Virus record (IMG/VR): IMGVR_UViG_3300042503_002645
Span: 1 to 64,000 of that record
From: a virus
Length of the DNA stretch: 64,000 nt
Direction: 5' to 3' (one strand)
Shown here one piece after another: positions 3,271-41,328 of this stretch. The translations under genes and the position numbers were made by a program. The notes below the pieces were generated by a model. It saw nothing but the letters and a program-made list of their open reading frames with translations, made no database searches and was not told the origin of the DNA. Each line of letters opens with the position of its first letter. Position 1 is the first letter of the stretch.

Positions 3271-3987
3271 ATGCGGAAAAATACAGTGCGGGTCGCGGAG
3301 AAAAAAACCGCTGAAAAAGCCCGCCGACGGCAAGAGCGCCAGGAAGTCCGGGAACAAGTTGTCCGGCAGCCTCTGGAGCTCACCTGGAAGACCAAGGCGC
3401 AAGCCGACGCCTGGTCCACGCTCGATAAAAGCCTTATCACTTTTTTGCTCGGCTCTGCGGGCTCCGGCAAGACGTTTCTCGCGATGGCCTGCGCCATCAA
3501 TGCCGTGCTGACGGGGCAAGCTGAGAAGATTGTGCTGACCCGGCCGATCGTCGACGCGGGCGAGAAGCTGGGCTATTTGCCAGGCACCTTCAACGAGAAG
3601 GTCAACCCGTACATGCAGCCGCTGTACGACGCCATGGAGGTGCTGGTCGGCAAGCAGTCTGCCAAGCGCGAGATGATCAACAAGGCGGTGGTGTTGGCGC
3701 CGCTGTGCTACATGCGCGGACGGACGTTCACCAACTCGATCTGCGTGTTCGACGAAGCCCAGAACGCGACCTTTGCGCAGCTCAAGCTTTTCCTGACGCG
3801 TTTCGGCGAGAACAGCCGTTTTGTCATCACCGGCGATCCTGATCAGAGTGATCTGCCGTTCTCGCCGCCGCCGCTGCGCGAAGTCGTCAGCAAGCTTTCG
3901 GGCGCGAAGGGCATCGGCGTGGTGAAGTTCGGCGAGAACGACGTCGTGCGGCACCCGATTGTCAAGACCATTCTGGCGCGCCTCTGA
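3271..3987 (+). CDS. phoH: PhoH-family ATPase
   Basis: Walker A GSAGSGKT plus LTRP, LGYLPG, MRGRT, DEAQN and TGDPDQSDL, all PhoH signature motifs. Confidence 0.95.
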   Translation: MRKNTVRVAEKKTAEKARRRQERQEVREQVVRQPLELTWKTKAQADAWSTLDKSLITFLLGSAGSGKTFLAMACAINAVLTGQAEKIVLTRPIVDAGEKLGYLPGTFNEKVNPYMQPLYDAMEVLVGKQSAKREMINKAVVLAPLCYMRGRTFTNSICVFDEAQNATFAQLKLFLTRFGENSRFVITGDPDQSDLPFSPPPLREVVSKLSGAKGIGVVKFGENDVVRHPIVKTILARL

Positions 3988-5975: not shown

Positions 5976-6006
5976 GCGCGACGGTTTACAGCCATTGGAG
6001 CGCGGC

Positions 6007-7107
6007 GTGTACGACTTCCTCATCGTCGGCAGTGGACTTTACGGCGCTGTGTTTGCGGAGCGTTGCCGGGCAGCGGGCAAACGCGCGCTCGTGATAGACC
6101 AACGCGCGCACATCGGCGGTAACTGCTACACAGAGAATCGAGACGGCATCGCGGTTCATGTCTATGGGCCGCACATCTTTCACACTAGCAACCGGCGGCT
6201 CTGGGACTACGTCCAGCGGTTCGGCCAGTTCAACAACTTCGTACTGCGCCCCAAAGTCCGTTACGGGGACGATCTCTATTCGTTCCCTATCAATCTTTTC
6301 ACGCTTTACCAGCTGTGGGGCGTTTCGACGCCCGGCGAGGCCCTGACTCGCCTGGAAGCCGAGCGCGTTCACGTTGCTGACCCGACGAACCTCGAGGACT
6401 GGGTCCTCAGCCAGGTGGGCCGCACCGTTTACGAGAAGTTCATTCAGGGCTATACCCAGAAGCAGTGGCAGCGTGATCCTCGGCAGCTGCCCGCCTCGAT
6501 CATCCGTCGCCTGCCGATTCGCACGACGTTCGACGACAACTACTTTATGGACGCCTATCAGGGCATCCCCGTCGACGGCTACACCGCCGTGATCGCCCGC
6601 ATGCTCGATGGGACTGAAGTCGTGCTGGGCGAGGACTATTTGGCGCGGCAGAGCTACTGGGACGCCAAGGCCGAGCGCGTCGTGTTCACCGGGTGCATCG
6701 ACGCCTTCTACCGATACTGCTACGGTGCACTGGAGTACCGGTCGCTGCGCTTCCGCCATCAGCGGCTGGAGGTCCCCGATTTCCAAGGCGTGGCCATGGT
6801 CAACTACACTTCAACGGCGGTCCCATTTACCCGCATCGTTGAACACAAGCACTTCACCGGCGTCCAGACGCCTTTCACCCACATCACGCGCGAGTACCCC
6901 GAGACTTGGAGCCGCGGTGATGTGCCATATTACCCCATCTGTGACGCGGAGAACCAGGCGCGCTACGAACAGTACGCGGCGCTGGGCCGCGCCTCGCCGC
7001 GCTACATTTTTGGCGGCCGACTGGCCGAGTACCGCTACTACGACATGCACCAGGTGATTGGCAGCGCGCTGCATCGGTGCGCAACACTTGGAATGGACTT
7101 AACATGA
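6007..7107 (+). CDS. glf: UDP-galactopyranose mutase
   Basis: YDFLIVGSGLYG FAD-binding start, HIGGNCY, HVYGPHIFHT, YQGIP, LEYRSL, PYYP, GRLAEYRYYDMHQ. GTG start at 6007 follows GGAG. Confidence 0.95.
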   Translation: MYDFLIVGSGLYGAVFAERCRAAGKRALVIDQRAHIGGNCYTENRDGIAVHVYGPHIFHTSNRRLWDYVQRFGQFNNFVLRPKVRYGDDLYSFPINLFTLYQLWGVSTPGEALTRLEAERVHVADPTNLEDWVLSQVGRTVYEKFIQGYTQKQWQRDPRQLPASIIRRLPIRTTFDDNYFMDAYQGIPVDGYTAVIARMLDGTEVVLGEDYLARQSYWDAKAERVVFTGCIDAFYRYCYGALEYRSLRFRHQRLEVPDFQGVAMVNYTSTAVPFTRIVEHKHFTGVQTPFTHITREYPETWSRGDVPYYPICDAENQARYEQYAALGRASPRYIFGGRLAEYRYYDMHQVIGSALHRCATLGMDLT

Positions 7108-8548: not shown

Positions 8549-9949
8549 ATGTCGTTGCCAGTGACTGCACATCAGCAGTTGGTCGTGATCCCTGACGCGG
8601 CGTTCTCGCCCTACATGGTGCCGGGTAATCCGCGGGCGCACACTTACCTGGAGTTTTATCCGGAGCGCCAGTACGCCCACACGATGGTGATCGCCCCGCA
8701 TCATCACGAAGCGTGGCTCAATACCCACCTGTTCAAGATCGCCCTGTTCTGCCGGGCCAACAACATCAAGTTGGTCTCGATCGGCCACGAGAACCAGCTG
8801 CCATTCTTCGGCATGTTCTCCGACGCGGTAATTCTCCAAAAAGGCAGCCTGCATGAGCTGTTCGGCTGGTTCTCCACCTTCTCGACCGACACGCGCAACT
8901 TTGACAAGATCCCGGGCTGGGTCGACGTCTACAAGCACGACGACTTGCCCTGGGACGCGCTGCCCGTGCCGGTCGAACAGACTGTCCCCGACGCGCGGGC
9001 GAAGTTCCGGTCGCCCTGGCGCGCTATCTACGGGCACTACCCGGCCGAACACGTAATCGCCGTCTTCAGCGATTGCCGGATTTTTATCCGCGAGGCCAGC
9101 AAGGCGACCTTCGACCGGCTTAACGACGAGAACAAGCTTCCACGTCAGGCGATCTGGTGCGAGGTCAAAGAAAAGTACGGCAAAATGAACGCGCGGCTCG
9201 AGAATCTTCGCGCTGCCGGGCTGCCGTTGGTGGGCGTCAACAAACAGCTGCAGCGGGATCTAGTCCGCGAGCACGGCGCGGACTTCATGACTCTGCAGAT
9301 CCTATGCTCGTTGCGCAACGAGTGCCGGATGCTGTTGGGGGCTGGGAGCGCGCACGTCTTCGCCGTTGCCCCGGCCAACCACGCGATGGCGTTGGCCCCC
9401 GCAGATCGGTTCTACGACGCCGAGACCGAATACATCGTGCGTAAGTTCAACCAGCACCGTTTCGGCGCCGTGCCCTACGTCGAGGAGGCCACGCTGACGT
9501 TTCTTTGCACGGAAGATCCACGGCAATACTCGCCGAAACGCGAGGATGAACATATCGCGCACTGGCAGCTAGATTACTTTCTGCCCGAGGAGGCACTGCG
9601 CGCCTATCTGGAGTGCGCGCTGGCGATCCCGCCGCGCACGAGCGTGGAGGAAGTGACCTGGGAGGCGTTTCGCGCCGAGCGCCGTTTTGATCCGTTCACC
9701 AGCGGCCGCCAAATTCGGTTTCAGCGCGGCAGCGGCGAACATTTGTCGGATGTAATTCTTGAGCCGGACGGTACACTGACCCCGCGCTCGACGAACGAGA
9801 CTTACTGGAGCCAGGTCGGCGACAGGCTAGCGTTCAAGATGCACCTCGGACAAACGGCTACAGTTTTTCGGCCTGAGAATGACTCGACGCTCAGCGGATG
9901 TTTTATTTACAACCAGCCCATCCTCCATCAACTGCTACTTATCCCGTGA
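8549..9949 (+). CDS. Hypothetical protein in glycan-modification cluster
   Basis: 466-aa ORF with native codon usage, coupled to its neighbours. No motif recognised. Confidence 0.6.
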   Translation: MSLPVTAHQQLVVIPDAAFSPYMVPGNPRAHTYLEFYPERQYAHTMVIAPHHHEAWLNTHLFKIALFCRANNIKLVSIGHENQLPFFGMFSDAVILQKGSLHELFGWFSTFSTDTRNFDKIPGWVDVYKHDDLPWDALPVPVEQTVPDARAKFRSPWRAIYGHYPAEHVIAVFSDCRIFIREASKATFDRLNDENKLPRQAIWCEVKEKYGKMNARLENLRAAGLPLVGVNKQLQRDLVREHGADFMTLQILCSLRNECRMLLGAGSAHVFAVAPANHAMALAPADRFYDAETEYIVRKFNQHRFGAVPYVEEATLTFLCTEDPRQYSPKREDEHIAHWQLDYFLPEEALRAYLECALAIPPRTSVEEVTWEAFRAERRFDPFTSGRQIRFQRGSGEHLSDVILEPDGTLTPRSTNETYWSQVGDRLAFKMHLGQTATVFRPENDSTLSGCFIYNQPILHQLLLIP

Positions 9950-10947
9950 GTAATTCATCGCCGACGACCGCGCCGCGCAAGATAATCTTTCGCAACTGGC
10001 AAAGCCCGGGCGACCTCGTGATGCTGCTGTTCGCCATCACGAGCCTGCACGAGTCGCATCCGGGCAAGTTCATCACGGACGTGGACTGCGGCGTCAAAGA
10101 TATCTTTGAGCACAATCCTCTGATTACGCCGCTGGACCGCGCGGATTCGGATGTCGAGGTGGTCCACGCCGAGTACCCGAGCATTCACCGCTCGAACACG
10201 CACTCGGTGCGGTTCGTCGAGGCTTTTGGCGAGTACCTGAGTGAGAAGCTGGGCGTGCCGATCAAGCCGACGCGCTTCCACAGCGTGCTGTACATCACGC
10301 CCGAGGAGCAGGGCTGGTTTTCGGGCGTCTACGAAAAACTCCAGAAAGACGTGCCGTACTGGGTCATCAACGCGGGGCACAAGTACGACTACACGGCCAA
10401 GGCCTGGAGCTTCGCGCGCTACCAGGAGCTGGTCGCCCGCTTCCCCGACGTCTGGTTCGTCCAGGTCGGCGCCAAGGAGCACAACCACCCCGAGCTGACC
10501 GGCCCCAACGTTCTGAACTTCATCGGGCAGACCACGATCCGGCAGATGATCCGTTTGGTCTACAACTCGTTCGGCGTGATCTCCGGCGTCAGCTTCCCCA
10601 TGCACCTGGCCTACGCTGTGCCGCCGCACCCGCGGTTCAATCGAAGTAGCCGCGCCAACATCACCATCGCAGGCGGTCGCGAGCCATCGCACTGGGAGGA
10701 GGGACCCAACCACCAGTTCCTCCATACGTGTGGTATGCTCCCCTGCTGCGACATGGGCGGCTGCTGGAAGAGCCGAGTGATCCCGCTGGGCGACAACGAC
10801 TACAAGGACAAGAACCTTTGCAGTCGCCCAGTGGTCATGGAAAACGGCCAGTGGATCGGCGAGTGCATGGCGATGATCAGCGTGGACGAAGTCGCCCGGC
10901 ACATTGAGCGGTACATGGCCTACTTGGATTACTCTCCTAAATTCTGA
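9946..10947 (+). CDS. Glycosyltransferase family 9-like (heptosyltransferase-like, GT-B)
   Basis: SPGDLVM, FEHNP, K.W....YQELV, FVQVG, GQTTIRQ, SFPMHLAYA and a C-terminal CM..I.V.EV pattern. Confidence 0.8.
   Translation: MSNSSPTTAPRKIIFRNWQSPGDLVMLLFAITSLHESHPGKFITDVDCGVKDIFEHNPLITPLDRADSDVEVVHAEYPSIHRSNTHSVRFVEAFGEYLSEKLGVPIKPTRFHSVLYITPEEQGWFSGVYEKLQKDVPYWVINAGHKYDYTAKAWSFARYQELVARFPDVWFVQVGAKEHNHPELTGPNVLNFIGQTTIRQMIRLVYNSFGVISGVSFPMHLAYAVPPHPRFNRSSRANITIAGGREPSHWEEGPNHQFLHTCGMLPCCDMGGCWKSRVIPLGDNDYKDKNLCSRPVVMENGQWIGECMAMISVDEVARHIERYMAYLDYSPKF
10094..10109. repeat. Perfect 16-bp palindrome TCAAAGATATCTTTGA
   Basis: Read directly; lies inside the GT9-like CDS. Confidence 0.8.
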
Positions 10948-10957
10948 AGGATCAGAG

Positions 10958-11482
10958 ATGCCCCACGAAGACGACATCGAGTGGCTGCGAACAGCGCTGG
11001 CACACGCGGCGGCCTATTCAGACGACCCGCGGACGCAGAACGGCGCGGTGATTGTGGCGCAGCCTGGCGGCTACCCCCTCGGCGAGCCGCATTTTGTCGT
11101 GGCCGCAAATTGTTTTCCTGTCGGCGGCATCGGCAGGATTCAGGTCACCGACGAGCGCCTGGACCCGGCCACGAAGCTAACGTACATGGAGCACGCTGAG
11201 CGTGGCGCGATCTACAGGGCCGCGGCGGACCGCGTCACGACCTGGGGCTCGACAATGTACTGCCCGTGGTTCGCCTGCGTGGATTGCGCCCGGGCGATTA
11301 TCTGTTCGGGCATCAAGCGTGTCGTCGGGCTCAAGAAGCCGCGGCTGCTTACTCCCGAGCGTTGGCGGGCGACGATCGAGCAGGCCGATGCGCTGCTGGC
11401 CGAGGCGCACGTTCGCGTCGACCTGCTCGAGGACGAGATCGGTGTCGAGATCCTGTTCAACGGCGAAAAGGTGGTGCTGTGA
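10958..11482 (+). CDS. dCMP deaminase
   Basis: S.DP.TQNGAVIV, HAE, and PWFACVDC Zn-binding motif followed by IICSGIKRVV. Confidence 0.9.
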   Translation: MPHEDDIEWLRTALAHAAAYSDDPRTQNGAVIVAQPGGYPLGEPHFVVAANCFPVGGIGRIQVTDERLDPATKLTYMEHAERGAIYRAAADRVTTWGSTMYCPWFACVDCARAIICSGIKRVVGLKKPRLLTPERWRATIEQADALLAEAHVRVDLLEDEIGVEILFNGEKVVL

Positions 11483-13726: not shown

Positions 13727-14353
13727 GTGTACGCCTCGATTCCGGCCTTCTGCATCAACCTTGATACCCGGCCGGATCGGTGGGCGCAGGCCGAGGCTGA
13801 GTTTCAGCGCGTGGCGTGGCCGGTCGAGCGCTGGCCCGCGATGCGCTACGCAACCTCGCCGGTTCCCGGACTTTCGGCAGGCGCGGCTGGCTGTCTGGAA
13901 AGCCATCGGCAGCTCTGGCGGCACTGCCTGGCTGCGGGTTTCTCCGTCATGGCTGTCTTCGAGGACGACGGCGTGCTGGCGCCGCGGTTCAAAGATATCT
14001 ATTCCAGCGTGGCGGCCCAGCTACCCGCGGACTGGGAAGTCTGGCACCTGCACAGCACCCACGCCCGGACAGCGCCCGTCAGCGAGGCCATCGTGGCGTA
14101 CCGGAGCAACGGCTGGGGCTCGCACGGCTACCTGATTCGACCCAGCGCCTGCGAGAAGCTCCTGCAGCTGGACAGCGCGCAGCCGGTCGACGCGCAGCTC
14201 ACCGGCGGCCTGCTCGCGTTGGGTGGACAACCCTATGGTACGGCGCTAGGCTGCGCCCTCTGTTTGCAACGCGGCGAAGATACGGACATCCCGGTGAACT
14301 CGCAGGTCGACTATTGGCGTCGGTTGCGCGGGCGCCTTTTTGAAGGACGTTAA
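13727..14353 (+). CDS. Glycosyltransferase family 25-like
   Basis: CINL..RPDRW, GCLESH..LW, VFEDD, HGYLI and PVD motifs. Confidence 0.85.
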   Translation: MYASIPAFCINLDTRPDRWAQAEAEFQRVAWPVERWPAMRYATSPVPGLSAGAAGCLESHRQLWRHCLAAGFSVMAVFEDDGVLAPRFKDIYSSVAAQLPADWEVWHLHSTHARTAPVSEAIVAYRSNGWGSHGYLIRPSACEKLLQLDSAQPVDAQLTGGLLALGGQPYGTALGCALCLQRGEDTDIPVNSQVDYWRRLRGRLFEGR

Positions 14354-14873: not shown

Positions 14874-14901
14874 TGCGGCAGTGCCGCTGTTCTTTGACAA
14901 C

Positions 14902-15206
14902 CTTTTTGCGCCCGTCTATTGAGACGTGATAAATTGGTGTTTGCGCGTGAAAACGTGCAAATGCTGCGAGTTAGTCGTGGTGGCCGACTGGTTAGGTGCT
15001 ATTTCGGCGGCATGGATGCTTTCGGGGTAGCGGGAACCGTGGTCAGATCATGACGTGAACACGGTCGGAGGCGCGGTGAATGCCACACGGGGCGAACATA
15101 TGCCTTTGTAAGTCACCGCATTACTTCAGCTTGCTGAAGTTGGACCTGGGGGTAGGGGATCCCAGGAGCTCGCGGCACAACAATCGATTTATTTACGCGC
15201 AGAGGG
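14902..15206 (+). ncRNA. Large multibranch structured RNA / 5' leader of the holin-like gene
   Basis: Nested long-range stems (14902-14911/15197-15206, 14925-14939/15183-15197, 14962-14972/15167-15177) enclose at least six hairpins, and a GAAA-capped hairpin lies at 14940-14961. TATAAT occurs at 14869-14874. Confidence 0.6.
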
Positions 15207-15553: not shown

Positions 15554-15695
15554 CCGAAAACTTCGCGTGACTCTGAGCGCGGCGGCTTGGTGCGCCACGC
15601 TCTTGTGGGCCCTGGCGCTGCTTTCGTCCGCTTCAGCGGTCAGTAATAGCCGCGCGGTTATGGCGTCCGAAGCAACAAGAAGCGCGCGTCCATGA
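15546..15695 (+). CDS. Small signal-peptide/membrane protein (49 aa; not in ORF track)
   Basis: AGGAG RBS; MSDRKLRVTLSAAAWCATLLWALALLSSASAVSNSRAVMASEATRSARP*. Overlaps both neighbours. Confidence 0.55.
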   Translation: MSDRKLRVTLSAAAWCATLLWALALLSSASAVSNSRAVMASEATRSARP

Positions 15696-16252
15696 CTTTT
15701 CTCACAGCCATGATGCTTGAACAACCTGCTGGAAAACGGCGCAATTTCGCGACCTGGTGGGCGTTCGCCGCCTCGGTTGCGTGCGCACTGCTGCTTTGGC
15801 ACAACGTCGCGCAGATTAACGCGCGCCAAAGCGAGATCATGAAGATCATCAACTACTCGACGGACGGAATCGTCGTCTGCGACCGGAATGGCAAGGTGCT
15901 CTTTGCCAATGACGCGACGCAGACGATTACCGGATTCAGCGAGCGCGACCTGGTTGACTCTGGCCTGGCGCAAATCATCCCGAACTACCTGCACGACAAG
16001 CATCGCCAGGGCCTCGAGCGCGCCAAAGACAAGAGCGCGCGCGGCATCGAAGGCGTCTTCTATCGAAACATCTATCCGGTCACGCGCAAGGACGGCGAAA
16101 CGATTATTTGTCTGATCAGCGTCGGTAGCGTGCTTCACTTTGGCGGCCCGCAGTTCTTCGCTTACATCACACCCGTTGCCGAGCCGACGGAAAGAAAGTC
16201 TTCCGTCAAACCTGGCGCACTGTCCAGCGTTCCGTCCTCGAGCGCGAAGTGA
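15692..16252 (+). CDS. Membrane-anchored stand-alone PAS-domain protein
   Basis: N-terminal TM, then DGIVVCDRNGKVLFANDA...ITGFS..DL....L..IIP......H and RKDG PAS signature. No kinase or other output domain. Confidence 0.85.
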   Translation: MTFLTAMMLEQPAGKRRNFATWWAFAASVACALLLWHNVAQINARQSEIMKIINYSTDGIVVCDRNGKVLFANDATQTITGFSERDLVDSGLAQIIPNYLHDKHRQGLERAKDKSARGIEGVFYRNIYPVTRKDGETIICLISVGSVLHFGGPQFFAYITPVAEPTERKSSVKPGALSSVPSSSAK

Positions 16253-16262
16253 GGTGACGGCC

Positions 16263-17993
16263 ATGGACGGCTTTTCTGTGCTTGACCCGCTGGCGTGGGA
16301 TCCGTGCGCCATTAAGTTCCACCCGGCCTATCTTGCCGGTAATACGGCAGGTTGGCTGTCGAAGAGTGGCGCTGTTACTGGCACCGACCATTACCTATCC
16401 GGGCGGCTGTACGTCTCGAAGAGTGGCTACCTGCTCCTCTCGGTGCCCAATGCCCTGGTCCGCGGCGTGTTTGACGCCATGACGGCCCCGGGCGTCGAGC
16501 TGCCCACGATGAACGCCTTCAAGGGCGAGGCGGCTGACAAAGAACTGCTCAACGCTCACATCACAGTGATGACCGATGCCGAGGTCGATAAGATCGGCCC
16601 CGACAAGATCAACGAGCGCGGACATCACTTTCACTACGCCCTGGGCCCGGTCCGCGAGTTCTCGCCCAAGACCGAGAGCCTGAGCCGCGTGTGGGCGATC
16701 CAGGTCGCCAGCCCCGAGTTGGCTGCGCTGCGCAAGAGTTACGGCCTGTCGGCGCTGCCCAACGGCGACCACCAGTTTCACATCACGGTTGCCGTGCGCC
16801 GGAAGAACGTCCTGGGCGCTAACGAAGTCGCTAAGATCGACGGCAGCCGGGGCGAGCTCAAGGCGGCAGCCGATCACACGGTGACTTACGACTGCGGGTG
16901 CTCGGGGCCGTGTTCATGCCCTGATACCTGTATTTGCAAGCAAAGCGGCCGGTGTGGTGCGGCACACAAAGCAGCAGCGACTGAAAAGCTGCCCTGGCGC
17001 GAGCGCGCTGAGGTTTACGCGCGCGACCCGAACACTGGCAAGCTGTACGGCGGCAAGTGGGACAACGACGGCTCTTTTGCCCTTCCAGGTGGCGGCATCG
17101 ACCCTGGCGAGGATCCGGCAACGGCAGCGTTGCGCGAGCTGGAAGAAGAGACCGGTATCAAAGCCACCAACGCGCGCGTGTTGCCAATTCCGGCGGTGGA
17201 TTCGCCGTGGAGTGACGCCGTTCGCGCCGAAAAAGCTAAACAAGGGCGCGGTAACTTTGCCGGTTCGCGCACGCACTTTGTTGCTGCCGACATCGTGAAC
17301 CACCCCAAACGCGATGGTCTGGACTACTGGGCCGCGAAAGACAGGGGATACTACGACCCGGCCGACGCGCTAAAGATCATGCAGGGCGTAAAGAAGTTCA
17401 ACGTGCCTAGCATTGCCAACGCGCGGATGGCCGCCATCAACCATCTCATTGCTGAAGCGTCCAAAAAGCAAGCTGCCGCGGTCAAAGACGTCCTGTCCGG
17501 CGGCGAAGCGGATCACAAGCCCGATAGCGAGTTTCCCCAGGAGGCCTTGGCAGAAGGCAAAAAGCATGAGCGAGAACACACGGACAATGCAGAAGTCGCC
17601 GAAGAAATTGCCAAGGATCACCTGTCCGAAGACCCCGCGTACTACGAAAAAGCTAAAGCCCTAGAGAAGCTCTCGAACAGCGTTTACCTGAATCAGGCGT
17701 TTCAGGCGCTCAACCCGGCGACGATCGGCGGGCTCACCCCGTACGACCCGAGCAAACCGGTCTTCGAGAACATCCACCATCAGCTCGCCGAGGCCAAAAA
17801 CCGCGGCGACTTCATCCTGCAGTCGCAGCGCAACTACCAGATGTGGCGCGCGGCTCAGGACCCGCAGTATCGTTACCAGCTTGCCATGCAGGCCGTTCGC
17901 GGCGACATGCCTCAGCCCAGCGTGTTCGATCAGGCGATTGAGCGCTACGGCGACCAGGCGGCCGCGAGCCTTGGTTTTGGACCAGGGAGGTGA
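16263..17993 (+). CDS. Multidomain protein: 2H phosphoesterase + Cys-rich knot + Nudix hydrolase + DUF5661-like domain
   Basis: Two HITV motifs (~16557, ~16779); CGCSGPCSCPDTCICK; Nudix box GGGIDPGEDPATAALRELEEETG; EGKKHEREH...IAKDHLSEDPAYY. Confidence 0.8.
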   Translation: MDGFSVLDPLAWDPCAIKFHPAYLAGNTAGWLSKSGAVTGTDHYLSGRLYVSKSGYLLLSVPNALVRGVFDAMTAPGVELPTMNAFKGEAADKELLNAHITVMTDAEVDKIGPDKINERGHHFHYALGPVREFSPKTESLSRVWAIQVASPELAALRKSYGLSALPNGDHQFHITVAVRRKNVLGANEVAKIDGSRGELKAAADHTVTYDCGCSGPCSCPDTCICKQSGRCGAAHKAAATEKLPWRERAEVYARDPNTGKLYGGKWDNDGSFALPGGGIDPGEDPATAALRELEEETGIKATNARVLPIPAVDSPWSDAVRAEKAKQGRGNFAGSRTHFVAADIVNHPKRDGLDYWAAKDRGYYDPADALKIMQGVKKFNVPSIANARMAAINHLIAEASKKQAAAVKDVLSGGEADHKPDSEFPQEALAEGKKHEREHTDNAEVAEEIAKDHLSEDPAYYEKAKALEKLSNSVYLNQAFQALNPATIGGLTPYDPSKPVFENIHHQLAEAKNRGDFILQSQRNYQMWRAAQDPQYRYQLAMQAVRGDMPQPSVFDQAIERYGDQAAASLGFGPGR

Positions 17994-17995
17994 AC

Positions 17996-18265
17996 ATGCC
18001 GCTTTTCCCGTGGAGACCCAAGAACCCCGATACCCCTGCGCCGCTGCCCCCGGCGCCCTTGCCGACGCCCGACGACGTGGCCAACCCAGCCCGGGCGGCC
18101 TGGCTTAAGGCGCTGTATCTCCTGCGCCAAATCGACAAGCAGAAGCTGGGTGTGGCGGTATTTACGGTGCCGGTCATTGTGTTCCTGGCGCTGTCGGGTG
18201 TGGTACTTTGGGGTTATGTCCTGTGCCGCGGGGCCTGGAAGTTCGTCAAATCCGTTTTCGCGTGA
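17996..18265 (+). CDS. Small membrane protein
   Basis: GGGAGG RBS; one long hydrophobic segment. Confidence 0.6.
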   Translation: MPLFPWRPKNPDTPAPLPPAPLPTPDDVANPARAAWLKALYLLRQIDKQKLGVAVFTVPVIVFLALSGVVLWGYVLCRGAWKFVKSVFA

Positions 18266-18268
18266 ACC

Positions 18269-19297
18269 ATGTCCGCTGTCATTGATATCTTTGCCTGGCA
18301 GCAGGTCCCCGAGCGGGTCAGCCAGCTTCTTCCCGAAGCGGCCAAGGTTCGCGCTCTGCACGAAAAGGCCGCTCTGGCCGCGGACATCCTGCCGCTCACG
18401 ATGGCGACCTGGAATCCCGAGGTCAACGCGCTGCTGCTTTACAGCAAGACCGGGCTGGGCAAGCGCGCCTACGAGACCTACGAAAAGGCGATCTACGACG
18501 GATCGCGGAGTTTCGCAGCGCTGGTCGGCGCGGAGCCGAACTGGGACGAAGAGATTCTCGTCAAGCGTGGCAGCTCGGCGTTGATTCCGGGCTACGACAA
18601 GCTCTGGAACTACAGCAACGCAGCCCTGGGCGGCCCCAACCCGATGACCAACGGCATTGTCTCGGCGCTGGTGCTGGGCGGGCTGGGTTACGGCGGCGGC
18701 GCCCTGGCGGAGCGGTTGTTCCCCGAGCGCTATCTCGAGCGCGGCAAGCTCCGGAAGTCGCTCGCCACCGCTGGCGCTCTGGGCGGCCTGGGGTTTGGCG
18801 CCGCAAACGCCTACGCCAACTCCCGGGCGATGAACAAAAGTTATCTCGAGGGGTTGTTCACCAACAACCACACGATTCCGCCTTATCTTCAGGAAAAGGC
18901 CAGCGTCGACCTCGGCCCCAGCCCCCTGACGTCCATGGACAGCGGGCTGTATGCGCCGTCGATTCCCGTGCCGCAGTTCAACCGCGCGGCCTGGATGGAC
19001 GTCAACAAAGGCCTGTACAACCCGGGCGGTATGCACACCCCGCCCGCATACGCGGCTGTTACCACCGGCATGATGAGCGGCATCAGCGCCGGAACGGGCT
19101 CCCAGGTCATTCGGCCTGTGGACGTGGTCAAGGGCTTCATGTCAGCCGGTGTCGGCCTGGCGACGGCAAATATCGCCGGAAAGACGTTGTCGGCGCTGGC
19201 CGGGTTGACTCCCGAAGCCCAGAACAAACTCCAAGACATGGGCCTGTGGGCCGGTATGATGCACGCCGTCGTGCCGCCGTTGTTCGGGCGGCGCTAG
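18269..19297 (+). CDS. Putative internal virion protein with glycine zippers
   Basis: No Cys; KAA/KRA/KAS motifs; GGLGYGGGALA and GALGGLGFG segments. Confidence 0.5.
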   Translation: MSAVIDIFAWQQVPERVSQLLPEAAKVRALHEKAALAADILPLTMATWNPEVNALLLYSKTGLGKRAYETYEKAIYDGSRSFAALVGAEPNWDEEILVKRGSSALIPGYDKLWNYSNAALGGPNPMTNGIVSALVLGGLGYGGGALAERLFPERYLERGKLRKSLATAGALGGLGFGAANAYANSRAMNKSYLEGLFTNNHTIPPYLQEKASVDLGPSPLTSMDSGLYAPSIPVPQFNRAAWMDVNKGLYNPGGMHTPPAYAAVTTGMMSGISAGTGSQVIRPVDVVKGFMSAGVGLATANIAGKTLSALAGLTPEAQNKLQDMGLWAGMMHAVVPPLFGRR

Positions 19298-19363
19298 GAG
19301 TTGCGCAAAATGCAGTGTCTTGGCAGAATGGGCCGACCTCGTAGCACAGGGAGAAACACCGCT

Positions 19364-19735
19364 ATGGCGACAAAGAAGCCGATTTCGACGATGCGTGAAG
19401 AACTGCGCCAGCTGGGCGAGGCCGCCGACGAGGTGGCACCAGCTGGCTCGAATGACTGGTTCACCCCTGAGTTTTGGACGATGGTCGTGTCGGCCATCAC
19501 CAATCTCATCGCGGTGGGCGTGGTGCTAGGCTGGATCAGTTCCAGCGATGCCGAGACGATCAATCGGAGCCTGGCTGCGCTTCTCGGCGCCGCGCAGGTG
19601 ATCATCGTCAACGCGGCCATCGTATGGAAGTACATCTCGGCTCGCGTCGCTGTCAAGGAAGCGATGATCGACGCGCGCTATCGGTACATGGAAGCCATCG
19701 CTGTCGAGCGCATCCGCGCCGAGAGAACAACGTGA
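19364..19735 (+). CDS. Holin-like two-TM membrane protein
   Basis: WFTPEFW followed by two TM helices and YI..R...K, a pattern seen in small phage holin-like proteins. Lies near the peptidase gene. Confidence 0.5.
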   Translation: MATKKPISTMREELRQLGEAADEVAPAGSNDWFTPEFWTMVVSAITNLIAVGVVLGWISSSDAETINRSLAALLGAAQVIIVNAAIVWKYISARVAVKEAMIDARYRYMEAIAVERIRAERTT

Positions 19736-19736
19736 C

Positions 19737-20150
19737 ATGACACCAGAAGATCTCCAGGAACGGATCGAGGATTCCCCGGCGCTGGCGATTTTGCGAAACC
19801 GCCTTCAAGAAGAAATCGGTTTCCGCGCCGCACCGGGCTGCGAGTTCAGTCCGTTCCTGGTGATCTCGGTGATCTCGATCATTGTGCAGGTTGTAATTCA
19901 TTGTCGTGAGCAGCGCAGCGCCGAGGATTTGCGGCTCGACATGCGCGACCTGCGCAACCTCGGGCCAGTGAAGAACTACATGCTGCGCCGCCGCCTCAAC
20001 GCGCTCTGGCGAGACCATTGTCCGCCCGAGATGCTACAATCAGAGAATCCGCTGCTGGAGGCTGTTTACGATCTGAGCGACAGCGCCGATGACGAAATCA
20101 TCGACGAACTGTTGTGGCTAGGAGATCGATACAAACAGACCGGCGACTAA
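19737..20150 (+). CDS. Hypothetical protein with hydrophobic segment
   Basis: Coupled ORF containing FSPFLVISVISIIVQVVIHC. Confidence 0.6.
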   Translation: MTPEDLQERIEDSPALAILRNRLQEEIGFRAAPGCEFSPFLVISVISIIVQVVIHCREQRSAEDLRLDMRDLRNLGPVKNYMLRRRLNALWRDHCPPEMLQSENPLLEAVYDLSDSADDEIIDELLWLGDRYKQTGD

Positions 20151-20159
20151 CCGCATCTC

Positions 20160-20195
20160 TCGCAAGGACGCGAACTATCATGGCAAGGATGCCAT
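20160..20195 (+). promoter_or_regulatory. Tandem ANGGAN-hexaloop hairpins (CsrA/RsmA-like sites) flanking a start codon
   Basis: TCGC-AAGGAC-GCGA (20160-20173) and ATGGC-AAGGAT-GCCAT (20180-20195). Confidence 0.6.
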
Positions 20196-20989
20196 CAAAT
20201 CACGTTCTGCCGACCAACGAGATCTTGCGCAAGCTCTTCGTGTTCGGGTACTTCGGCACTAAGACTTGGGCGCAGGTTCGGCAGATCAAGGGCGCCGAGT
20301 TGGACCGCGCCGTCCGGGAATACCAGCGCTTTCACGGTCTGGACCCAGACGGCCGCGTTGACGAGCGCACGGCTCACGTGCTCGAGCGCCGCCGCTGCGG
20401 TCTGCCCGACTTTAACTTTTCGGCGAGTGACACGGAGTGCAAGTGGCCGCACAAGGCGATCACGTACCACCCCAAGCTGATCTTGCCTGGCGTGACAGCC
20501 GAGCAGGCCAAGCAGGCGTACGACATCGCTTTTGGCCAGTGGGCGCGCGTCTGCGACATTGAGCCGGAGCGCGTGGAAGACCCGACCAAGGCCAACATTT
20601 TGGCGCGCTCAGGCAAGGGAAAGAAGCACGGACTCGATGCCCGCGGCGGCACTCTTGCTTGGAGCGAGCTGCCTTGCGGCGTCCATGAAAAAATTCAACT
20701 CGATCAGATGTACGACGAGGCTGAGTCGTGGAGCTTCAACATGGCCGTCGCCGTGATCTGTCACGAGATCGGTCACGCTTTGGGCCTGCCGCACCTGGCC
20801 AACGGCAACCTGATGGCGCCCTACTACGACCCGAACGTCACCGAGCCCCAGGCAGGCGATGTGCGCGAAATTCAGGCTCTGTACGGCAAGCGGAAGCGCC
20901 CGTATTCGAAGTTGAAGGACGCGTCGGTTGAGCTCGGCGGGACGATCGTGATCAACGGCAAGCCGTACATCCTGGTCCCCAAAACTTGA
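20180..20989 (+). CDS. Matrixin/MMP-like M10 zinc metallopeptidase with PG-binding-like prodomain
   Basis: AVREYQRFHGL..DG (PG_binding_1-like), cysteine switch RRCGLPD, HEIGHALGLPH zinc motif, Met-turn LMAP. Confidence 0.9.
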   Translation: MARMPSNHVLPTNEILRKLFVFGYFGTKTWAQVRQIKGAELDRAVREYQRFHGLDPDGRVDERTAHVLERRRCGLPDFNFSASDTECKWPHKAITYHPKLILPGVTAEQAKQAYDIAFGQWARVCDIEPERVEDPTKANILARSGKGKKHGLDARGGTLAWSELPCGVHEKIQLDQMYDEAESWSFNMAVAVICHEIGHALGLPHLANGNLMAPYYDPNVTEPQAGDVREIQALYGKRKRPYSKLKDASVELGGTIVINGKPYILVPKT

Positions 20990-25987: not shown

Positions 25988-28900
25988 ATGCCAGACTCGA
26001 TTCTCTCTGGACCGCCGGTACAGCCGCCGACGCCGCGCGCGTTTGGTGACATTGGCGCACTGCGCACTGGCATCTTCGATCGCGCGCTGCAAAGCGCCTC
26101 GGCGTTGGAGCCCGTCAAGAACGACCTCCACACGCTGCAGCTTCACGACGTGAAGTACGCGGGGCCGGAGAAGTTCACAAAGGCGGACCAGAAACGCGCC
26201 ATTCTTACGGGCAACTCGCTGCACCGGCGGTTGACGGGGACCTGGTCCCTGCTCGACAACACCACGGGGCAGCCGATCGCGACTCGCCAGACCACGATCG
26301 CGCACGTGCCGTATCTCACGGATTCGGGCACGTTCGTGAATCGCGGCGTGGAGTACACCCTCGCGCACCAGATGCGGCTCAAGCCCGGCGTCTACACTCG
26401 CGAGAAGGACAACGGCGAGCTCGAGGCGCACGTGAACGTGCTCCCCGGCAAGGGCCGCATGCACCGGTACTTTCTGGATCCCAAAACCGGTGTGATGAAC
26501 ATCAACATCGGCCAGGCCAAGATCCCGCTGATGCCGCTGTTGAAGGCGATGGGCGCGAAGGATTCCGACATTCGCGCTGCGTGGGGCAACGAGATCACCG
26601 CCGTCAACATGGAGAAGGGCGACGCGGGCACACTCGACAAGCTGTACCAGCGGCTGGTCTACAAACAAGTTCCTGGTCTTGATGCGCCCGGCAAGCAACA
26701 GGCCATCGCCGCTGAGTTTGCGCGCATGGAGCTTGACCCGGACGTCACGCGGCGCACGCTGGGCAAAGACTACAAAAACCTCACGCCCGAGGCCATTCTC
26801 GACATCACCAAGAAACTGATCGCGCTGAACCGCAAAGAGGCCGACCCTGACGATCGCGACGCCATGGCGTACCAAAACGTCGTGGGCCCCGAGGACCTGA
26901 TCTCCGAGCGTTTCACGAAAGACCGCCAGTCGTTGCGCAAGCTGCTGTGGCGGGCAACGGCCAAGAAAAACCTCGACCACGTGCCGACGGGGGTGTTCAA
27001 CAAGGCAATCTCTGCGGCGCTGATCGGCTCGGGACTCGGCAGCTCGCTCGAGGAAATTAACCCGGCGGAAATCTTCGATCACCAGGCGCGCGTCACACGC
27101 ATGGGCGAGGGCGGCATCGGCTCGCTGGACGCTGTGCCCCAGGAATCGCGCTCCGTCCAGCCCAGTCACCTCGGCTTCGTCGATTTCTTGCGCACGCCGG
27201 AGTCGGGAAAAGTGGGCGTCGACATGCGCTTCGCTCGCGGCGCCATGAAAGGTGCTGACGGCAAAATCTACACGCCCGTCGTGAACATGAAGACCGGGCA
27301 GTCGGAGCTCAAGACGCCAGGCGAACTGGCCGACATGCCGCTGGCCTTCCCGGGCGAAGACAAGAGCGACATGCCGATGGTCGCGGCGCTCGTGGGCGGC
27401 AAGATGAAGTATGTCCCGCGCGAGGAAGTCCAGTTCTCGCTGCCGCACATGGACAACACGTTCTCGGGCCTGTCGAACATGGTTCCGATGAAGTCTTACA
27501 TGAAGGGCCACCGCGTGATCATGGCCAGCCGCATGTTCACGCAGGCGCTGCCACTGGTGGGCGCAGAGGCGCCGCTGGTGCAGTCGGCCATCGCCGACAA
27601 GGACGGTTCGAGCTACGAAGACGAGATGGGCGAGAAGCTCGGCGCCGTGCGCGCGCAGTTTCACGGTCAGGTGGTCTCGGCGGAGCCCGGAATGATCGTG
27701 GTACGCGATCGCGAGGGCAAGAAGCACGAGATTGACCTGTACAACGACATGCCCTTCAACCGGAAGACCTTTTGGCACCAGACGCCCGCCGTGCAGCCCG
27801 GCGACGTGTTCAAGCCCGGGCAACTCCTGGCGCACTCAAACTTCACGGACAAGCAGGGCACCGCGGCGCTGGGCAAGAATCTCCGCGTGGCCTATTTGCC
27901 GTTCCAGGGCAAGAACTACGAAGACGCCGTGGTGATTTCCGCGAGCGCTGCGAAGAAGCTCTCCAGTGAGCACATGTACCAGCACGAGGCCGAGTGGGAC
28001 GACAACTCCCGCATCGGCAAGAAGACGTTCGTCTCGCTCTTCCCGACCGAGTACGACAAGAAGACGCTCGAGAACTTTGATGACAAGGGCGCCATCCAGA
28101 AGGGCACCGTCGTCAACTACGGCGACCCGCTCATCCTGCAGGCCAAGACCAAAGAGACGACCTACGGCAAGGTCCACCGCGGCCGCGCAGGCAGCTTCTC
28201 CAATGAGACGGTCACTTGGGAGCACCACTCGCCGGGCGTTGTGACGGACGTCGAGCACACCGACAAGGGCGTGCAGGTCGTCGTGAAGACGCAGGCCGAG
28301 ATGCAGGTCGGCGACAAGCTGACCGGGCGTTACGGCGACAAGGGCGTGATTGCCGATGTCATTCCCGACCACCAGATGCCAAATGACAAGGACGGCAACC
28401 CGTTCGAGATCCTTGTCTCGCCGCTGGGCCTGATCTCCCGCGTCAATCCGGCGCAGATCGTGGAGGCGGCGCTTGGCAAGATCGCAGCGAAGACGGGAAA
28501 GCCCTTCAAAATGAAGGACTTCGACAGCACCGCGGATTACGTGGACTTCGCGCAGCAAGAGCTTGGGAAGCACGGCCTCTCCGATACTGAGGACGTTCTG
28601 GATCCTGAAACCGGTCGTAAGATCAAAGGCGTGCTGACCGGTAACAGGTTCTTCATGAAGCTCCATCACACGGCCGAGGCCAAGGGGCAGGGGCGCGCGA
28701 TGGGCAGCTACACGGCCGAGGGCACGCCCGCAAAGGGCGGCTCCGAGGGGGCCAAGCGCGTCGGCATGCTCGACCTGGGCGCGCTGCTCTCTCACGGCGC
28801 CGGAAAGGTCATCCGGGACGCGAAGATGGTGCGGGGCCAAGCCAACCCCGAATACTGGTCGCAGTTCATGGCCGGGTACACTCCGCCGCTGCCCAAGGTT

Positions 28901-30367
28901 CCCCACGTCTACGAGAAGTTCGTCAGCCAGCTCCGCGGCGCCGGGATCAACACCGTGCGCACCGGCACCAAGACGAACATCATGGCTATGACCGACAAGG
29001 ACGTCGATCAGCTGGCCGGTGACCGCGAGCTGCAGAACAGCGAGACGGTCGACTGGAAGGGCAAGCTGAAGCCGGTCAAAGGCGGCCTGTTCGACGAGCA
29101 GCTCACGGGCGGGCACAGCGGCAACCGCTGGAGCAAAATCACGCTCCACGAGCCGATGCCCAACCCGGTCATGGAAGAGCCGATTCGGCGCGTTCTCGGC
29201 CTGACCGAGAAGCAGTTCCGCGGCGTGCTGGCAGGCGAGGTCCATCTTTTCGATAAGACTGGCCCCGAGGCGCTCAAGGCGGCGCTGGGGCGGATCAACA
29301 TGCCCAAGGCCATCGAGCAGGCCCGGTTAGATATCAAATCGGGCCGCAAGGTGCTGCGCGACGCTGCCGTCCGGCGGCTGGGCTACCTGAAGGCCGCTGA
29401 GGCGCAGGGCGTGCATCCCGAGGACTGGATGCTCACGAAGATGCCGGTGCTTCCGCCGATGTTCCGGCCGGTGTCGCAGATGGGCGCCAGCAAGATGACG
29501 TTGGTTTCTGACGCGAACTACCTGTACAAGGAGCTGCTGGACAGCAACAACGCGCTCAAGGAAACGTCTGGCGCCTTCACCGAGTTCGGCGAAGAGCGGC
29601 TGGGTTTGTATGACGCCATGCGCGCCGTGACTGGGCTGGGTGACCCGACCCAGCCCAAGAACCAGGAACGCCGCGTCAAGGGGTTCCTCCAGCACATCTT
29701 CGGCAGCTCTCCCAAGTACGGCACGGTGCAGCGCAAGCTGCTCAGCACGACCGTTGACCTGGTTGGCCGCGCTGTAATTACGCCCAACCCCGACCTGAAC
29801 ATGGACGAGGTGGCGCTCCCCGAGGACAAGGCCTGGGACGTTTACAAGCCGTTCGTTGTGCGGGGCCTGGTGCGCCGCGGGATGCCGCGCATGAACGCAC
29901 TTGATGCCGTTGAAGGGCGCAACAAAGCGGCCATGGACGAGCTGCAGACGCAAATGTCGTCTCGGCCGATCGTTATCAACCGTGCGCCGGTGCTTCACCG
30001 ATACGGTATGATGGCCTTCTACCCGAAGCTCACCAAGAACAAGGTCATGGAGGTCAACCCGGTCATTACCAAGGGCTTTGGCGCCGATTTCGACGGTGAC
30101 GCGATGCAATATCACGTCCCCAGCACGGAAGAAGCCGCCAGGGAAGCCGCCGAAAAGATGTTGCCCAGCAAGAACCTCTTTTCGACGGCGAGCTTCAAGG
30201 CGCACTACGTTCCAAACAAGGACTATCAGGCTGGTGTGTATCTGGCCTCGAGTCGAGTCGACAAGCGGCAGAAGCCGCGGGTGTTCAAGTCCAGACAGGA
30301 CGCCATCAACGCGTATCACCGCGGCGACATTGACGTCGACACCCCGGTGCATATTGTCGATAGCTAA
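25988..30367 (+). CDS. DNA-directed RNA polymerase: beta subunit fused to the N-terminal half of beta'
   Basis: beta motifs RSVQPSHLG..TPE, LGKNLRVAY..NYEDAVVIS, GDKLTGRYGDKGVI and MKLHH. beta' motifs ETV...KP..GGLF, PVLPPMFRP, NRAPVLHR and catalytic GADFDGD (30080-30100). Confidence 0.95.
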   Translation: MPDSILSGPPVQPPTPRAFGDIGALRTGIFDRALQSASALEPVKNDLHTLQLHDVKYAGPEKFTKADQKRAILTGNSLHRRLTGTWSLLDNTTGQPIATRQTTIAHVPYLTDSGTFVNRGVEYTLAHQMRLKPGVYTREKDNGELEAHVNVLPGKGRMHRYFLDPKTGVMNINIGQAKIPLMPLLKAMGAKDSDIRAAWGNEITAVNMEKGDAGTLDKLYQRLVYKQVPGLDAPGKQQAIAAEFARMELDPDVTRRTLGKDYKNLTPEAILDITKKLIALNRKEADPDDRDAMAYQNVVGPEDLISERFTKDRQSLRKLLWRATAKKNLDHVPTGVFNKAISAALIGSGLGSSLEEINPAEIFDHQARVTRMGEGGIGSLDAVPQESRSVQPSHLGFVDFLRTPESGKVGVDMRFARGAMKGADGKIYTPVVNMKTGQSELKTPGELADMPLAFPGEDKSDMPMVAALVGGKMKYVPREEVQFSLPHMDNTFSGLSNMVPMKSYMKGHRVIMASRMFTQALPLVGAEAPLVQSAIADKDGSSYEDEMGEKLGAVRAQFHGQVVSAEPGMIVVRDREGKKHEIDLYNDMPFNRKTFWHQTPAVQPGDVFKPGQLLAHSNFTDKQGTAALGKNLRVAYLPFQGKNYEDAVVISASAAKKLSSEHMYQHEAEWDDNSRIGKKTFVSLFPTEYDKKTLENFDDKGAIQKGTVVNYGDPLILQAKTKETTYGKVHRGRAGSFSNETVTWEHHSPGVVTDVEHTDKGVQVVVKTQAEMQVGDKLTGRYGDKGVIADVIPDHQMPNDKDGNPFEILVSPLGLISRVNPAQIVEAALGKIAAKTGKPFKMKDFDSTADYVDFAQQELGKHGLSDTEDVLDPETGRKIKGVLTGNRFFMKLHHTAEAKGQGRAMGSYTAEGTPAKGGSEGAKRVGMLDLGALLSHGAGKVIRDAKMVRGQANPEYWSQFMAGYTPPLPKVPHVYEKFVSQLRGAGINTVRTGTKTNIMAMTDKDVDQLAGDRELQNSETVDWKGKLKPVKGGLFDEQLTGGHSGNRWSKITLHEPMPNPVMEEPIRRVLGLTEKQFRGVLAGEVHLFDKTGPEALKAALGRINMPKAIEQARLDIKSGRKVLRDAAVRRLGYLKAAEAQGVHPEDWMLTKMPVLPPMFRPVSQMGASKMTLVSDANYLYKELLDSNNALKETSGAFTEFGEERLGLYDAMRAVTGLGDPTQPKNQERRVKGFLQHIFGSSPKYGTVQRKLLSTTVDLVGRAVITPNPDLNMDEVALPEDKAWDVYKPFVVRGLVRRGMPRMNALDAVEGRNKAAMDELQTQMSSRPIVINRAPVLHRYGMMAFYPKLTKNKVMEVNPVITKGFGADFDGDAMQYHVPSTEEAAREAAEKMLPSKNLFSTASFKAHYVPNKDYQAGVYLASSRVDKRQKPRVFKSRQDAINAYHRGDIDVDTPVHIVDS

Positions 30368-33222: not shown

Positions 33223-33302
33223 TTCTGTAGGATGTAAGAGCTACGACACGGTAAATTGTTGCTTACGCGTGTCTTATGTCGTGCCGCACGGAGGTGGCTG
33301 CT

Positions 33303-41283: not shown

Positions 41284-41328
41284 ACGGAATCCGCGCGCTA
41301 AAGCGTGTGGGGCCACAAGGAGATGACC

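Follow-up and report, generated by a model that had tools for sequence, protein, structure and literature searches.

Does the gene at positions 16263-17993 encode one multidomain enzyme, or a set of enzymes that is packaged in the phage head and cut apart there? The stretch of DNA analyzed, called the window here, comprises the first 64,000 nucleotides of the 119,044-bp IMG/VR virus record IMGVR_UViG_3300042503_002645 (completeness estimate 58%). The gene lies on the plus strand. Its product, of 576 amino acids plus stop, is a modular protein in which a 2H phosphoesterase, a cysteine-rich knot, a Nudix hydrolase, a DUF5661 domain and a helical tail are joined by linkers with the motif K-x-A. 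The domains, their modularity, the junction motif and the enrichment of that motif in proteins of the head module are confirmed and lie far beyond chance. We infer packaging, cleavage, the protease and the substrates. The reading that we favour, with a probability of roughly 0.4, is a packaged polyvalent effector that would be cut by the head protease at K-x-A-[A/S/G] into separate enzymes.

Modules of the protein

The listed open reading frame (ORF) spans 16140-17993 and starts with TTG; homologues all begin at the ATG at 16263 (MDGFS...). The module order is 2H phosphoesterase, K200-AAA, seven-Cys knot, K236-AAA, Nudix box, K402-QAAA, DUF5661 and helical tail. A first-pass annotation, made from the letters alone, had given the same coordinates, frame, domain order and three K-x-A linkers, and these were borne out by Pfam matches above the curated cut-offs and by intact motifs. 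All of the modules described below are on the plus strand.

The N-terminal leader (residues 1-44, 16263-16394) has a helix at residues 21-35 and reads K-S-G-A where many homologues have K-x-[A/G]-[A/G/S]. In many distant homologues the leader ends with this motif, at about residue 33-37. The 2H phosphoesterase core follows (residues 45-185, 16395-16817) and was assigned by Pfam and by a fold model. Pfam 2H-SAK (PF22547) matches residues 88-182 with an E-value of 5.7e-12 and 46.4 bits, compared with a gathering cut-off of 27. The two H-x-T motifs are H99-I-T at 16557-16565 and H173-I-T at 16779-16787, and both histidines are invariant in alignments of 26 close and 24 distant homologues.

The fold model of residues 1-209 has a predicted local distance difference test score (pLDDT) of 82.6 and a predicted template modelling score of 0.76. 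When the 2H model was compared with 48,161 PDB representatives by VIA-align, ranks 1-21 were all 2H enzymes, with Z from 6.6 to 3.6. The best match was Acb1 of phage FBB1 (7t27_A) with Z 6.6 and a root-mean-square deviation of 3.3 Å over 105 residues, and a Burkholderia phage phosphodiesterase gave Z 5.6. The top 15 Foldseek rows in the PDB were mostly 2H-type enzymes. In the viral structure library BFVD, giant-virus proteins matched at an E-value of 2.5e-6, and weak matches included two entries named Acb1 (E 0.024 and 0.34) and one named 'Swiss Army Knife 2H'. A sequence profile of the 2H domain matched no PDB chain at E-values up to 10. On the strength of these models the 2H fold is settled and the 2H clade is not.

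Hobbs et al. are said to have described Acb1 in 2022 as a phage 2H nuclease directed against the cyclic-oligonucleotide-based defence system CBASS. Like Acb1, the 16263-17993 protein has a 2H fold with two H-x-T/S motifs, and Acb1 is its top VIA-align match. Unlike Acb1, which is free-standing, it belongs to the Pfam class 2H-SAK and has an extra leader of 44 residues; the identity between the two is 12%.

Linker 1 (residues 186-204, 16818-16874) contains K200-A-A-A at 16860-16871. Residues 187-209 have a pLDDT below 50 in the model, and this low confidence is consistent with disorder. The Cys-rich knot, from C211 to C231 (16893-16955), has seven cysteines in the pattern C-x-C-x3-C-x-C-x3-C-x-C-x5-C. 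A family match for this module was looked for and none was found; we presume a likeness to metallothionein and regard the knot as metal-binding-like. Linker 2 carries K236-A-A-A (16968-16979).

The Nudix hydrolase module (residues 241-398, 16983-17456) was assigned by Pfam and by its motif. The Nudix box at residues 277-299 (17091-17159) agrees exactly with the consensus G-x5-E-x7-R-E-U-x-E-E-x-G-U, and Pfam NUDIX matches residues 266-308 with an E-value of 2.7e-12 and 47.3 bits (cut-off 21.1). PDB matches span only the box region of about 40 residues, the best being the Ap4A hydrolase 1f3y at E 5.5e-6. Below the NCBIfam cut-offs, and again over some 40 residues only, the module resembles RppH, MutT, ADP-ribose, DIPP and Ap4A enzymes alike, and the sequence points to no one substrate class.

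Linker 3 (K402-Q-A-A-A, 17466-17480) leads into DUF5661 (residues 408-470, 17484-17672), which carries L-x-G-G-x-A-D, E-x-E-H-T and D-H-L-x-E-D-P-x-Y-Y. Pfam DUF5661 (PF18905) matches residues 430-469 with an E-value of 9.4e-8 and 32.7 bits, compared with a gathering cut-off of 27. The first-pass annotation had pointed to HExEH and DHL motifs in this domain. The letters are present, as HEREH at residues 435-439 and DHL at 452-454, but the first His of HExEH varies among homologues. Many close homologues have D in its place and distant ones V or D, the constant part being E-x-E-H-T. We therefore rejected a zincin (HExxH) reading of DUF5661.

The conserved C-terminal helical tail comprises residues 471-576 (17673-17990) and is predicted to consist of helices, with pLDDT 75-92. 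A model of the C-terminal 177 residues has a pLDDT of 62.5. In this model DUF5661 is mostly coil with short helices (pLDDT 40-55), and the last 75 residues or so are helices (pLDDT 75-92). A profile of DUF5661 and the tail found nothing in the PDB below an E-value of 1. VIA-align of the tail returned only generic helical bundles, with a best Z of 6.4 and 47 chains at Z of at least 5. Among these chains, residues 496-576 (17748-17990) matched the cGAMP sponge Acb2/Vs.4 (7uq2_A at Z 5.1, 8h2j_A at Z 5.0). The two rows rank 33 and 45 of the 47, so this likeness is not significant and serves as a lead only. A complex prediction with the 2H domain and DUF5661 as separate chains gave a score of 0.12 against a mark of 0.32, and this is evidence for neither outcome.

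Cassettes, junctions and the head module

Relatives of the protein are numerous. A word-indexed search in which 8,000 candidates were scored found 439 proteins at E-values up to 0.001, many of them on contigs of about 200 kb, and when all cluster representatives were searched exhaustively, 4,618 passed the same threshold. In most of the 4,618 the similarity is confined to the N-terminal 2H domain, with identities of 45-60%, and protein sizes range from 180 to 2,913 amino acids. A Pfam scan of the 50 longest 2H relatives found 2H-SAK in 45, Nudix in 12, InPase in 9, LigD_N in 8, DUF5661 in 5, an ATP-dependent ligase domain in 3, peptidase C39 in 2, and SNF2, SET and a kinase in 1 each. GNAT is also present in the wider family, and in other phages DUF5661 occurs on either side of 2H domains.

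The 120 closest homologues fall into 26 architectures, as defined by regular-expression sequence anchors. Two parts of this close family are constant, a head of leader and 2H domain and an end of DUF5661 with its tail, and the shortest form, of about 370 amino acids, consists of these alone. The variable cassettes are the Cys knot, three Nudix types, a P-loop kinase, GNAT and a module that we call 'SDNKRY', and they occur in many combinations. In alignments, insertions and deletions fall exactly between K-A-A junctions. The anchor of the Cys knot, for example, was seen 61 times in the 120 proteins, always as a unit of its own with a junction on either side.

We counted K-x-A within 20 residues upstream of each module start and within 40 residues after the end anchor of the 2H domain. 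In the close family the motif preceded DUF5661 in 97 of 113 cases, Nudix-A in 58 of 62, Nudix-B in 10 of 10 and the Cys knot in 60 of 61, and it followed the 2H domain in 107 of 107. In a distant set the corresponding counts were 25/30, 4/6, 2/2, 9/9 and 75/85. Random windows of 21 residues contained K-x-A in 15.8% (close family) and 17.3% (distant set) of cases. The motif thus stands just before 86-100% of module starts in the close family, compared with 16% of random windows, although the inheritance of many junctions means that the counts cannot be treated as independent. K-x-A also borders newly acquired cassettes (the kinase, a second Nudix) and Nudix modules in unrelated architectures. 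The anchor-based count took the place of a pairwise test of indel edges, in which 113 of the left and 103 of the right edges had K.A, out of 237 each, compared with 10.8% of random windows; that test was noisy because it split long inserts. Whether homologues shuffle domains at K-x-A boundaries had been raised in the first-pass annotation as a check, and the alignments, the anchor counts and the 26 architectures all say that they do.

Two relatives from elsewhere carry the Nudix module in other settings. One is a stand-alone Nudix homologue of 285 amino acids (P0151), which has a 16-residue leader ending in K-Q-A-A before the module and another K-Q-A-A after it. By its sequence, the flanking grammar of the cassettes appears also on this single-module gene. 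The other, from a different phage, is a protein of 2,577 amino acids (P0179) in which a Nudix module homologous to residues 233-406 follows an RNA polymerase beta-prime fragment with Hint/intein domains. The fusion is a hint at transcripts or the nucleotides of the polymerase as possible substrates of the Nudix cassette.

The motif of the junctions is enriched in the proteome as a whole. In the 129 ORFs called on the 119-kb record, K.AA was observed 52 times, whereas shuffling each protein gave an expectation of 20.1 ± 4.9 (z 6.6). In the same proteome R.AA was observed 28 times and expected 28.8 times. Eight proteins, the 16263-17993 protein included, hold 35 of the 52 K.AA sites (sum of the per-protein counts). 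The protein at 89211-90452 has 7 and that at 37021-38949 has 6; those at 33276-35681, 39808-41283, 41305-42669 and 44755-45150 have 4 each; and those at 2658-3227 and 16263-17993 have 3 each. Most of the K.AA-rich proteins are encoded in one block with the probable major capsid gene.

This capsid gene (43754-44680, plus strand, 308 amino acids) marks the head module and has no K-x-A-[AGS] site itself. ESM Atlas clusters matching it are named major capsid protein, with a score of 0.98, and an NCBIfam model of the HK97-fold major capsid protein matches at an E-value of 6.4e-5, which is below the cut-off. It is 90-98% identical in four relatives and is the most conserved gene of the block. The other head-block genes discussed here are also on the plus strand. 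An 801-amino-acid protein (33276-35681) opens the block. It carries K-A-A-A-D at residues 36-40, is 72-89% identical in five relatives and keeps its K-x-A in five of six genomes; no match was found for it in the phage database or the Atlas. Four consecutive proteins (37021-38949, 39808-41283, 41305-42669 and 42691-43116) are rich in conserved K-x-A-[AGS] and are candidate scaffold, internal or ejection proteins. An Ala-rich protein of 131 amino acids directly after the capsid gene (44755-45150), with 4 K.AA sites, is a candidate scaffold. Low-complexity tracts rich in Gly and Pro were seen in 37021-38949 and 41305-42669, namely GGGGSSGGGGGG...PPPPPPGGPPGGPPGGGG at about residues 420-495 and a GMGGMGGMGGMGG run. 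PHROGs and Pfam recognised only one gene of the head module, the tail sheath at 49773-52595.

To follow the conservation of the motif, we compared orthologues from the head blocks of five relatives in alignments. K.A[AGS] outnumbers every other X.A[AGS] motif: it has 38 sites, 21 of which are kept in all but one relative. For the other 19 possible first residues, 33 of 138 sites are kept likewise, and for R 1 of 9 (sums of rows). At many sites the K and the two small residues are fixed and the neighbours vary. Several conserved sites are near N-termini: residue 33 in 41305-42669 (6/6 genomes), about residue 25 in 42691-43116 (6/6), residue 5 in 44755-45150 (5/5) and residue 35 in 37021-38949 (5/6). 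By analogy, these sites are placed as in maturation propeptides. The claim of the first-pass annotation that linkers and head proteins have a motif in common therefore holds, both by enrichment and by positional conservation around the capsid gene. Because the same motif occurs at conserved places, including the first 5-35 residues, of proteins around the capsid gene, we infer that K-x-A-[A/S/G] would be the recognition site of the phage's own head-maturation protease.

Packaging and cleavage weighed against the alternatives

In the packaged-effector reading, the 16263-17993 protein would be made late and would enter the prohead, with the leader, the DUF5661-tail end or both as its address. 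The linkers would then be cut, and the separate small enzymes would be injected together with the DNA. In the host, the 2H enzyme would open phosphodiester bonds of the cyclic, 2'-5' or 3'-5' kind, and nucleoside-diphosphate-X compounds would be split by the Nudix enzyme. Likely targets would be defence second messengers, the ADP-ribose-type products of these or, alternatively, RNA ends that are damaged or capped. The first-pass annotation had inferred a packaged polyprotein that is cut by the maturation protease and injected, and the evidence supports this mechanism in part.

Cleavage of packaged proteins at a short motif has precedents. T4 Alt and the internal proteins are trimmed by the prohead protease, and the T4 motif is L/I-x-E. 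In phage SPN3US, the ejection proteins lose N-terminal propeptides to the prohead protease gp245, which cleaves behind a motif of three residues and in some cases does so more than once per protein (PMC10052503). Like these substrates and those of phiKZ, the proteins described here have a short motif repeated in head-internal proteins, N-terminal propeptide-like sites and multiple sites. Unlike them, the core is K-x-A-[A/S/G], whereas the known motifs end in Glu, (A/S/G)-x-E (PMC10052503) in addition to that of T4; and where those substrates lose propeptides, cuts in the 16263-17993 protein would free several different enzymes.

The closest described system is that of the polyvalent proteins (Iyer, Burroughs, Anand, de Souza and Aravind 2017, PMC5512222). 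According to that paper, some polyvalent proteins have 2H domains and are predicted to travel with the DNA, some are fused to portal or MuF, and the 2H domains are predicted to be RNases or degraders of defence nucleotides. Self-processing by zincin-like peptidase domains is proposed in the same paper. Like these proteins, the present family is large, fast-varying and multidomain, with 2H, the Nudix-associated InPase, GNAT, kinase and SNF2, with a portal fusion in a relative and without linkage to RNA ligases. Unlike them, the 16263-17993 protein has no zincin-like peptidase, and every one of its junctions carries the motif common to head-module proteins. The fixed frame of leader-2H and DUF5661-tail with exchangeable inner cassettes, and the clade of jumbo phages of about 200 kb with fused beta/beta-prime, differ as well.

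The portal fusion is found in 1 of 21 long 2H relatives, a protein of 1,249 amino acids on seven contigs (P0400). It begins with Portal_Mu (E 5.3e-32), which is followed by a 2H domain 52% identical to that of the 16263-17993 protein. P-A-R-F-A-[K/R] borders this 2H domain on both sides and is possibly, to judge from the sequence, that phage's own processing motif.

A bolder form of the packaged-effector reading, which we put forward tentatively, is a true polyprotein strategy. The head-maturation protease would double as a polyprotein processor, and one gene would load the capsid with a phosphodiesterase, a Nudix enzyme, a kinase, an acetyltransferase and a Cys-rich peptide. Cassettes would be swapped between K-x-A-[A/S/G] sites, a portable 'package and release' grammar across hundreds of uncultured phages of about 200 kb, and the portal fusion in P0400 would be the same grammar with the motif of another protease. 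In the literature searched we found no description of a junction grammar common to head proteins, of the fixed-frame cassette design or of the clade. If the linkers are maturation sites, one gene would deliver a changeable set of counter-defence or repair enzymes. K-x-A-[A/S/G] would then be a new protease specificity, usable to predict the packaged proteome of the jumbo-phage clade from sequence. The three Nudix types, the 2H clade (more than 4,600 representatives) and DUF5661 are candidates for nucleotide-signal-destroying enzymes. If the linkers are uncut, the proteins are a well-documented new family of the polyvalent proteins already described.

Several points weigh against packaging and cleavage. 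The first is the protease. Pfam S77 and S78 prohead proteases had no match in the 119-kb record, nor did S77 in three complete relatives. The protein at 39808-41283, which by eye had an N-terminus like that of an HK97-type protease, was rejected as a candidate with an hhalign probability of 0.2% against HK97 gp4; the test was weak, with a single-sequence target and a query effective sequence number (Neff) of 1.45. This protein has no PDB (phmmer), Pfam or NCBIfam match, and its 863 homologues have neither a name nor a Pfam domain. The proteins at 36089-37018 and 43165-43713 gave no informative PDB or Pfam match, and family matches were found for none of the head-block proteins. The capsid call, which is probable, depends on a language-model match and a sub-threshold hidden Markov model match. 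The capsid family PF25209 had no match in the capsid search, and T4 Gp23 and Phage_capsid_4 had none in the search for head genes.

The second is the position of the gene. It is no part of the head module, whose block begins 15 kb further downstream, and stands first in a conserved block that leads on into a probable lysis region. A homologue of 18269-19297 follows it in 15 of 17 loci with a full-length relative, and the other two loci end at the gene. The third is the nature of the sites. Some K.AA sites lie in uniformly conserved stretches, as in the 413-amino-acid protein at 89211-90452, where they may be just helices. Outside the K-x-A-[AGS] core, junction sites and head-protein sites share no clear preference.

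The enzyme class adds further doubt. The first-pass comparison with Acb1 stands in that Acb1 is the best structural match of the 2H fold, but it is tied with other 2H enzymes, since Deinococcus cyclic phosphodiesterase (Z 6.0), Usb1 (6.0) and the LigT-like 1vgj (5.8) are within 1 Z. Foldseek E-values for the 2H model were weak, with a best of 0.037. In a tblastn search the 2H domain had no match in 50,697 GenBank phage records, and there is no cultured relative. One relative (P0397), which combines 2H, kinase, LigD_N, ATP-dependent ligase and OB domains, is a repair kit. As to novelty, injected polyvalent proteins with a 2H domain that degrades defence nucleotides are already in print as a general idea (PMC5512222).

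The rival that fares best is an uncut multidomain enzyme of the cytoplasm, which we consider unlikely but to be taken seriously. K-x-A-A would then be this lineage's Ala-rich flexible or helix-capping linker, and its abundance in head proteins would reflect Ala-rich helices. The location outside the head module, the negative protease search, the probably helical nature of several uniformly conserved K.AA stretches and the missing common logo around the core are all in its favour. It does not explain why R-x-A-A, in which R is equally suited to a helix or linker, is not enriched, nor why the K of the sites stays fixed next to drifting flanks. The recurrence of the motif at every new cassette (kinase, second Nudix) and in distant lineages, the propeptide-like N-terminal positions and the fusion of a relative's 2H domain to a portal also argue for the packaged effector rather than an uncut enzyme.

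A nucleic-acid end-healing enzyme, packaged or not, is the next alternative, and we regard it as improbable. The 2H domain would open 2',3'-cyclic phosphate ends left by host anticodon nucleases or other metal-independent nucleases, and the Nudix domain would trim 5' caps or pyrophosphates. According to PMC9503650, Swiss-army-knife or Pnkp-type RNA end-healing enzymes combine a 2H cyclic phosphodiesterase with phosphatase or kinase modules. Pfam 2H-SAK is named after these 'Swiss army knife' RNA-repair proteins, and the present relatives, like them, combine 2H with a kinase. The additions in relatives point the same way, with a P-loop kinase, the LigD_N 3'-phosphoesterase in 8 of the 50 long relatives, an ATP-dependent ligase in 3 of 50 and the full set in P0397. 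So do the top NCBIfam matches of the Nudix box, which are RppH RNA pyrophosphohydrolases (E 1.2e-7, far below the cut-offs), and the Nudix module of P0179 behind its polymerase fragment. Because relatives hold complete end-healing and sealing sets, and because of this Nudix-polymerase fusion, a function on RNA ends stays in play.

Other findings fit end healing less well. The Swiss-army-knife systems, as covered in PMC9503650, have no Nudix, Cys knot or DUF5661, and the Pfam scan of the 16263-17993 protein reported no HAD phosphatase. RtcB and an Rnl2-type RNA ligase were found neither in the 119-kb record nor in the three complete relatives; an Rnl1 search was made without a working control. 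The window has no tRNA genes, and the 2H versions of polyvalent proteins are reported never to associate with RNA ligases (PMC5512222).

Processing by another protease, in cytoplasm or periplasm, is highly improbable: the M10 metzincin of the gene's own conserved block (20114-20989, 2 kb downstream; identity in relatives 62-90%), a host protease, or the protein itself through DUF5661 with its conserved E, H and D residues could be proposed, but the peptidoglycan-binding domain of the M10 protein and its small membrane neighbours fit lysis, the apparent HExxH of DUF5661 is not conserved and the motif is concentrated in head-module proteins.

Neighbouring genes and the phage

Most of the loci with a full-length relative also encode a small membrane protein, two more small proteins and an M10 metzincin that carries a peptidoglycan-binding domain. 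In the window these are the small membrane proteins at 17990-18265, 18269-19297 and 19301-19735 and the M10 (matrixin-type) peptidase at 20114-20989, which has HEIGHALGLPH and an N-terminal peptidoglycan-binding domain. This group is probably a lysis cassette, since the M10 protein has a peptidoglycan-binding domain and adjoins small membrane proteins.

Upstream, a PAS-domain protein (15692-16252, E 7.8e-11), which is unusual for a phage, ends 10 nucleotides before the gene. Further upstream are PhoH (3271-3987, E 2.2e-69), UDP-galactopyranose mutase (5995-7107, E 4.1e-76), a weak GT9-like match below the Pfam cut-off (9898-10947) and a GT25 glycosyltransferase (13727-14353). These upstream accessory genes point to the modification of phage components or the host surface with sugars. 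A promoter scan found no sigma-70-type site near the 16263-17993 gene. At 14875-14930 we noted a terminator-like hairpin (14875-14887) followed by TTGACA-17-TATTGA, seen by eye. This site may start the transcription unit of the gene and is too weak to time it.

In a distant phage (L020), a 377-amino-acid protein at 10004-11137 starts with DUF5661 and has no K-x-A-[AGS] sites. Its gene is 2.3 kb downstream of a capsid homologue and near a homologue of 39808-41283.

Nearly all genes of the window are on the plus strand, and the GC content is 62%. Complete relatives of the phage are 198-205 kb, with terminal repeats in one, and the source is a jumbo phage of about 200 kb known from metagenomes alone. 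Megablast of 20 kb of the window gave no match, and no close cultured phage was found. RNA polymerase beta and the N-terminal half of beta-prime are fused in one gene (25988-30367, 1,459 amino acids), and the remaining C part of beta-prime is a separate gene (31342-33222, 626 amino acids). Among cultured phages, this polymerase comes closest to those of Salmonella phage Arash and of Vibrio phages D69, D181 and D148, with an identity of no more than 33%.

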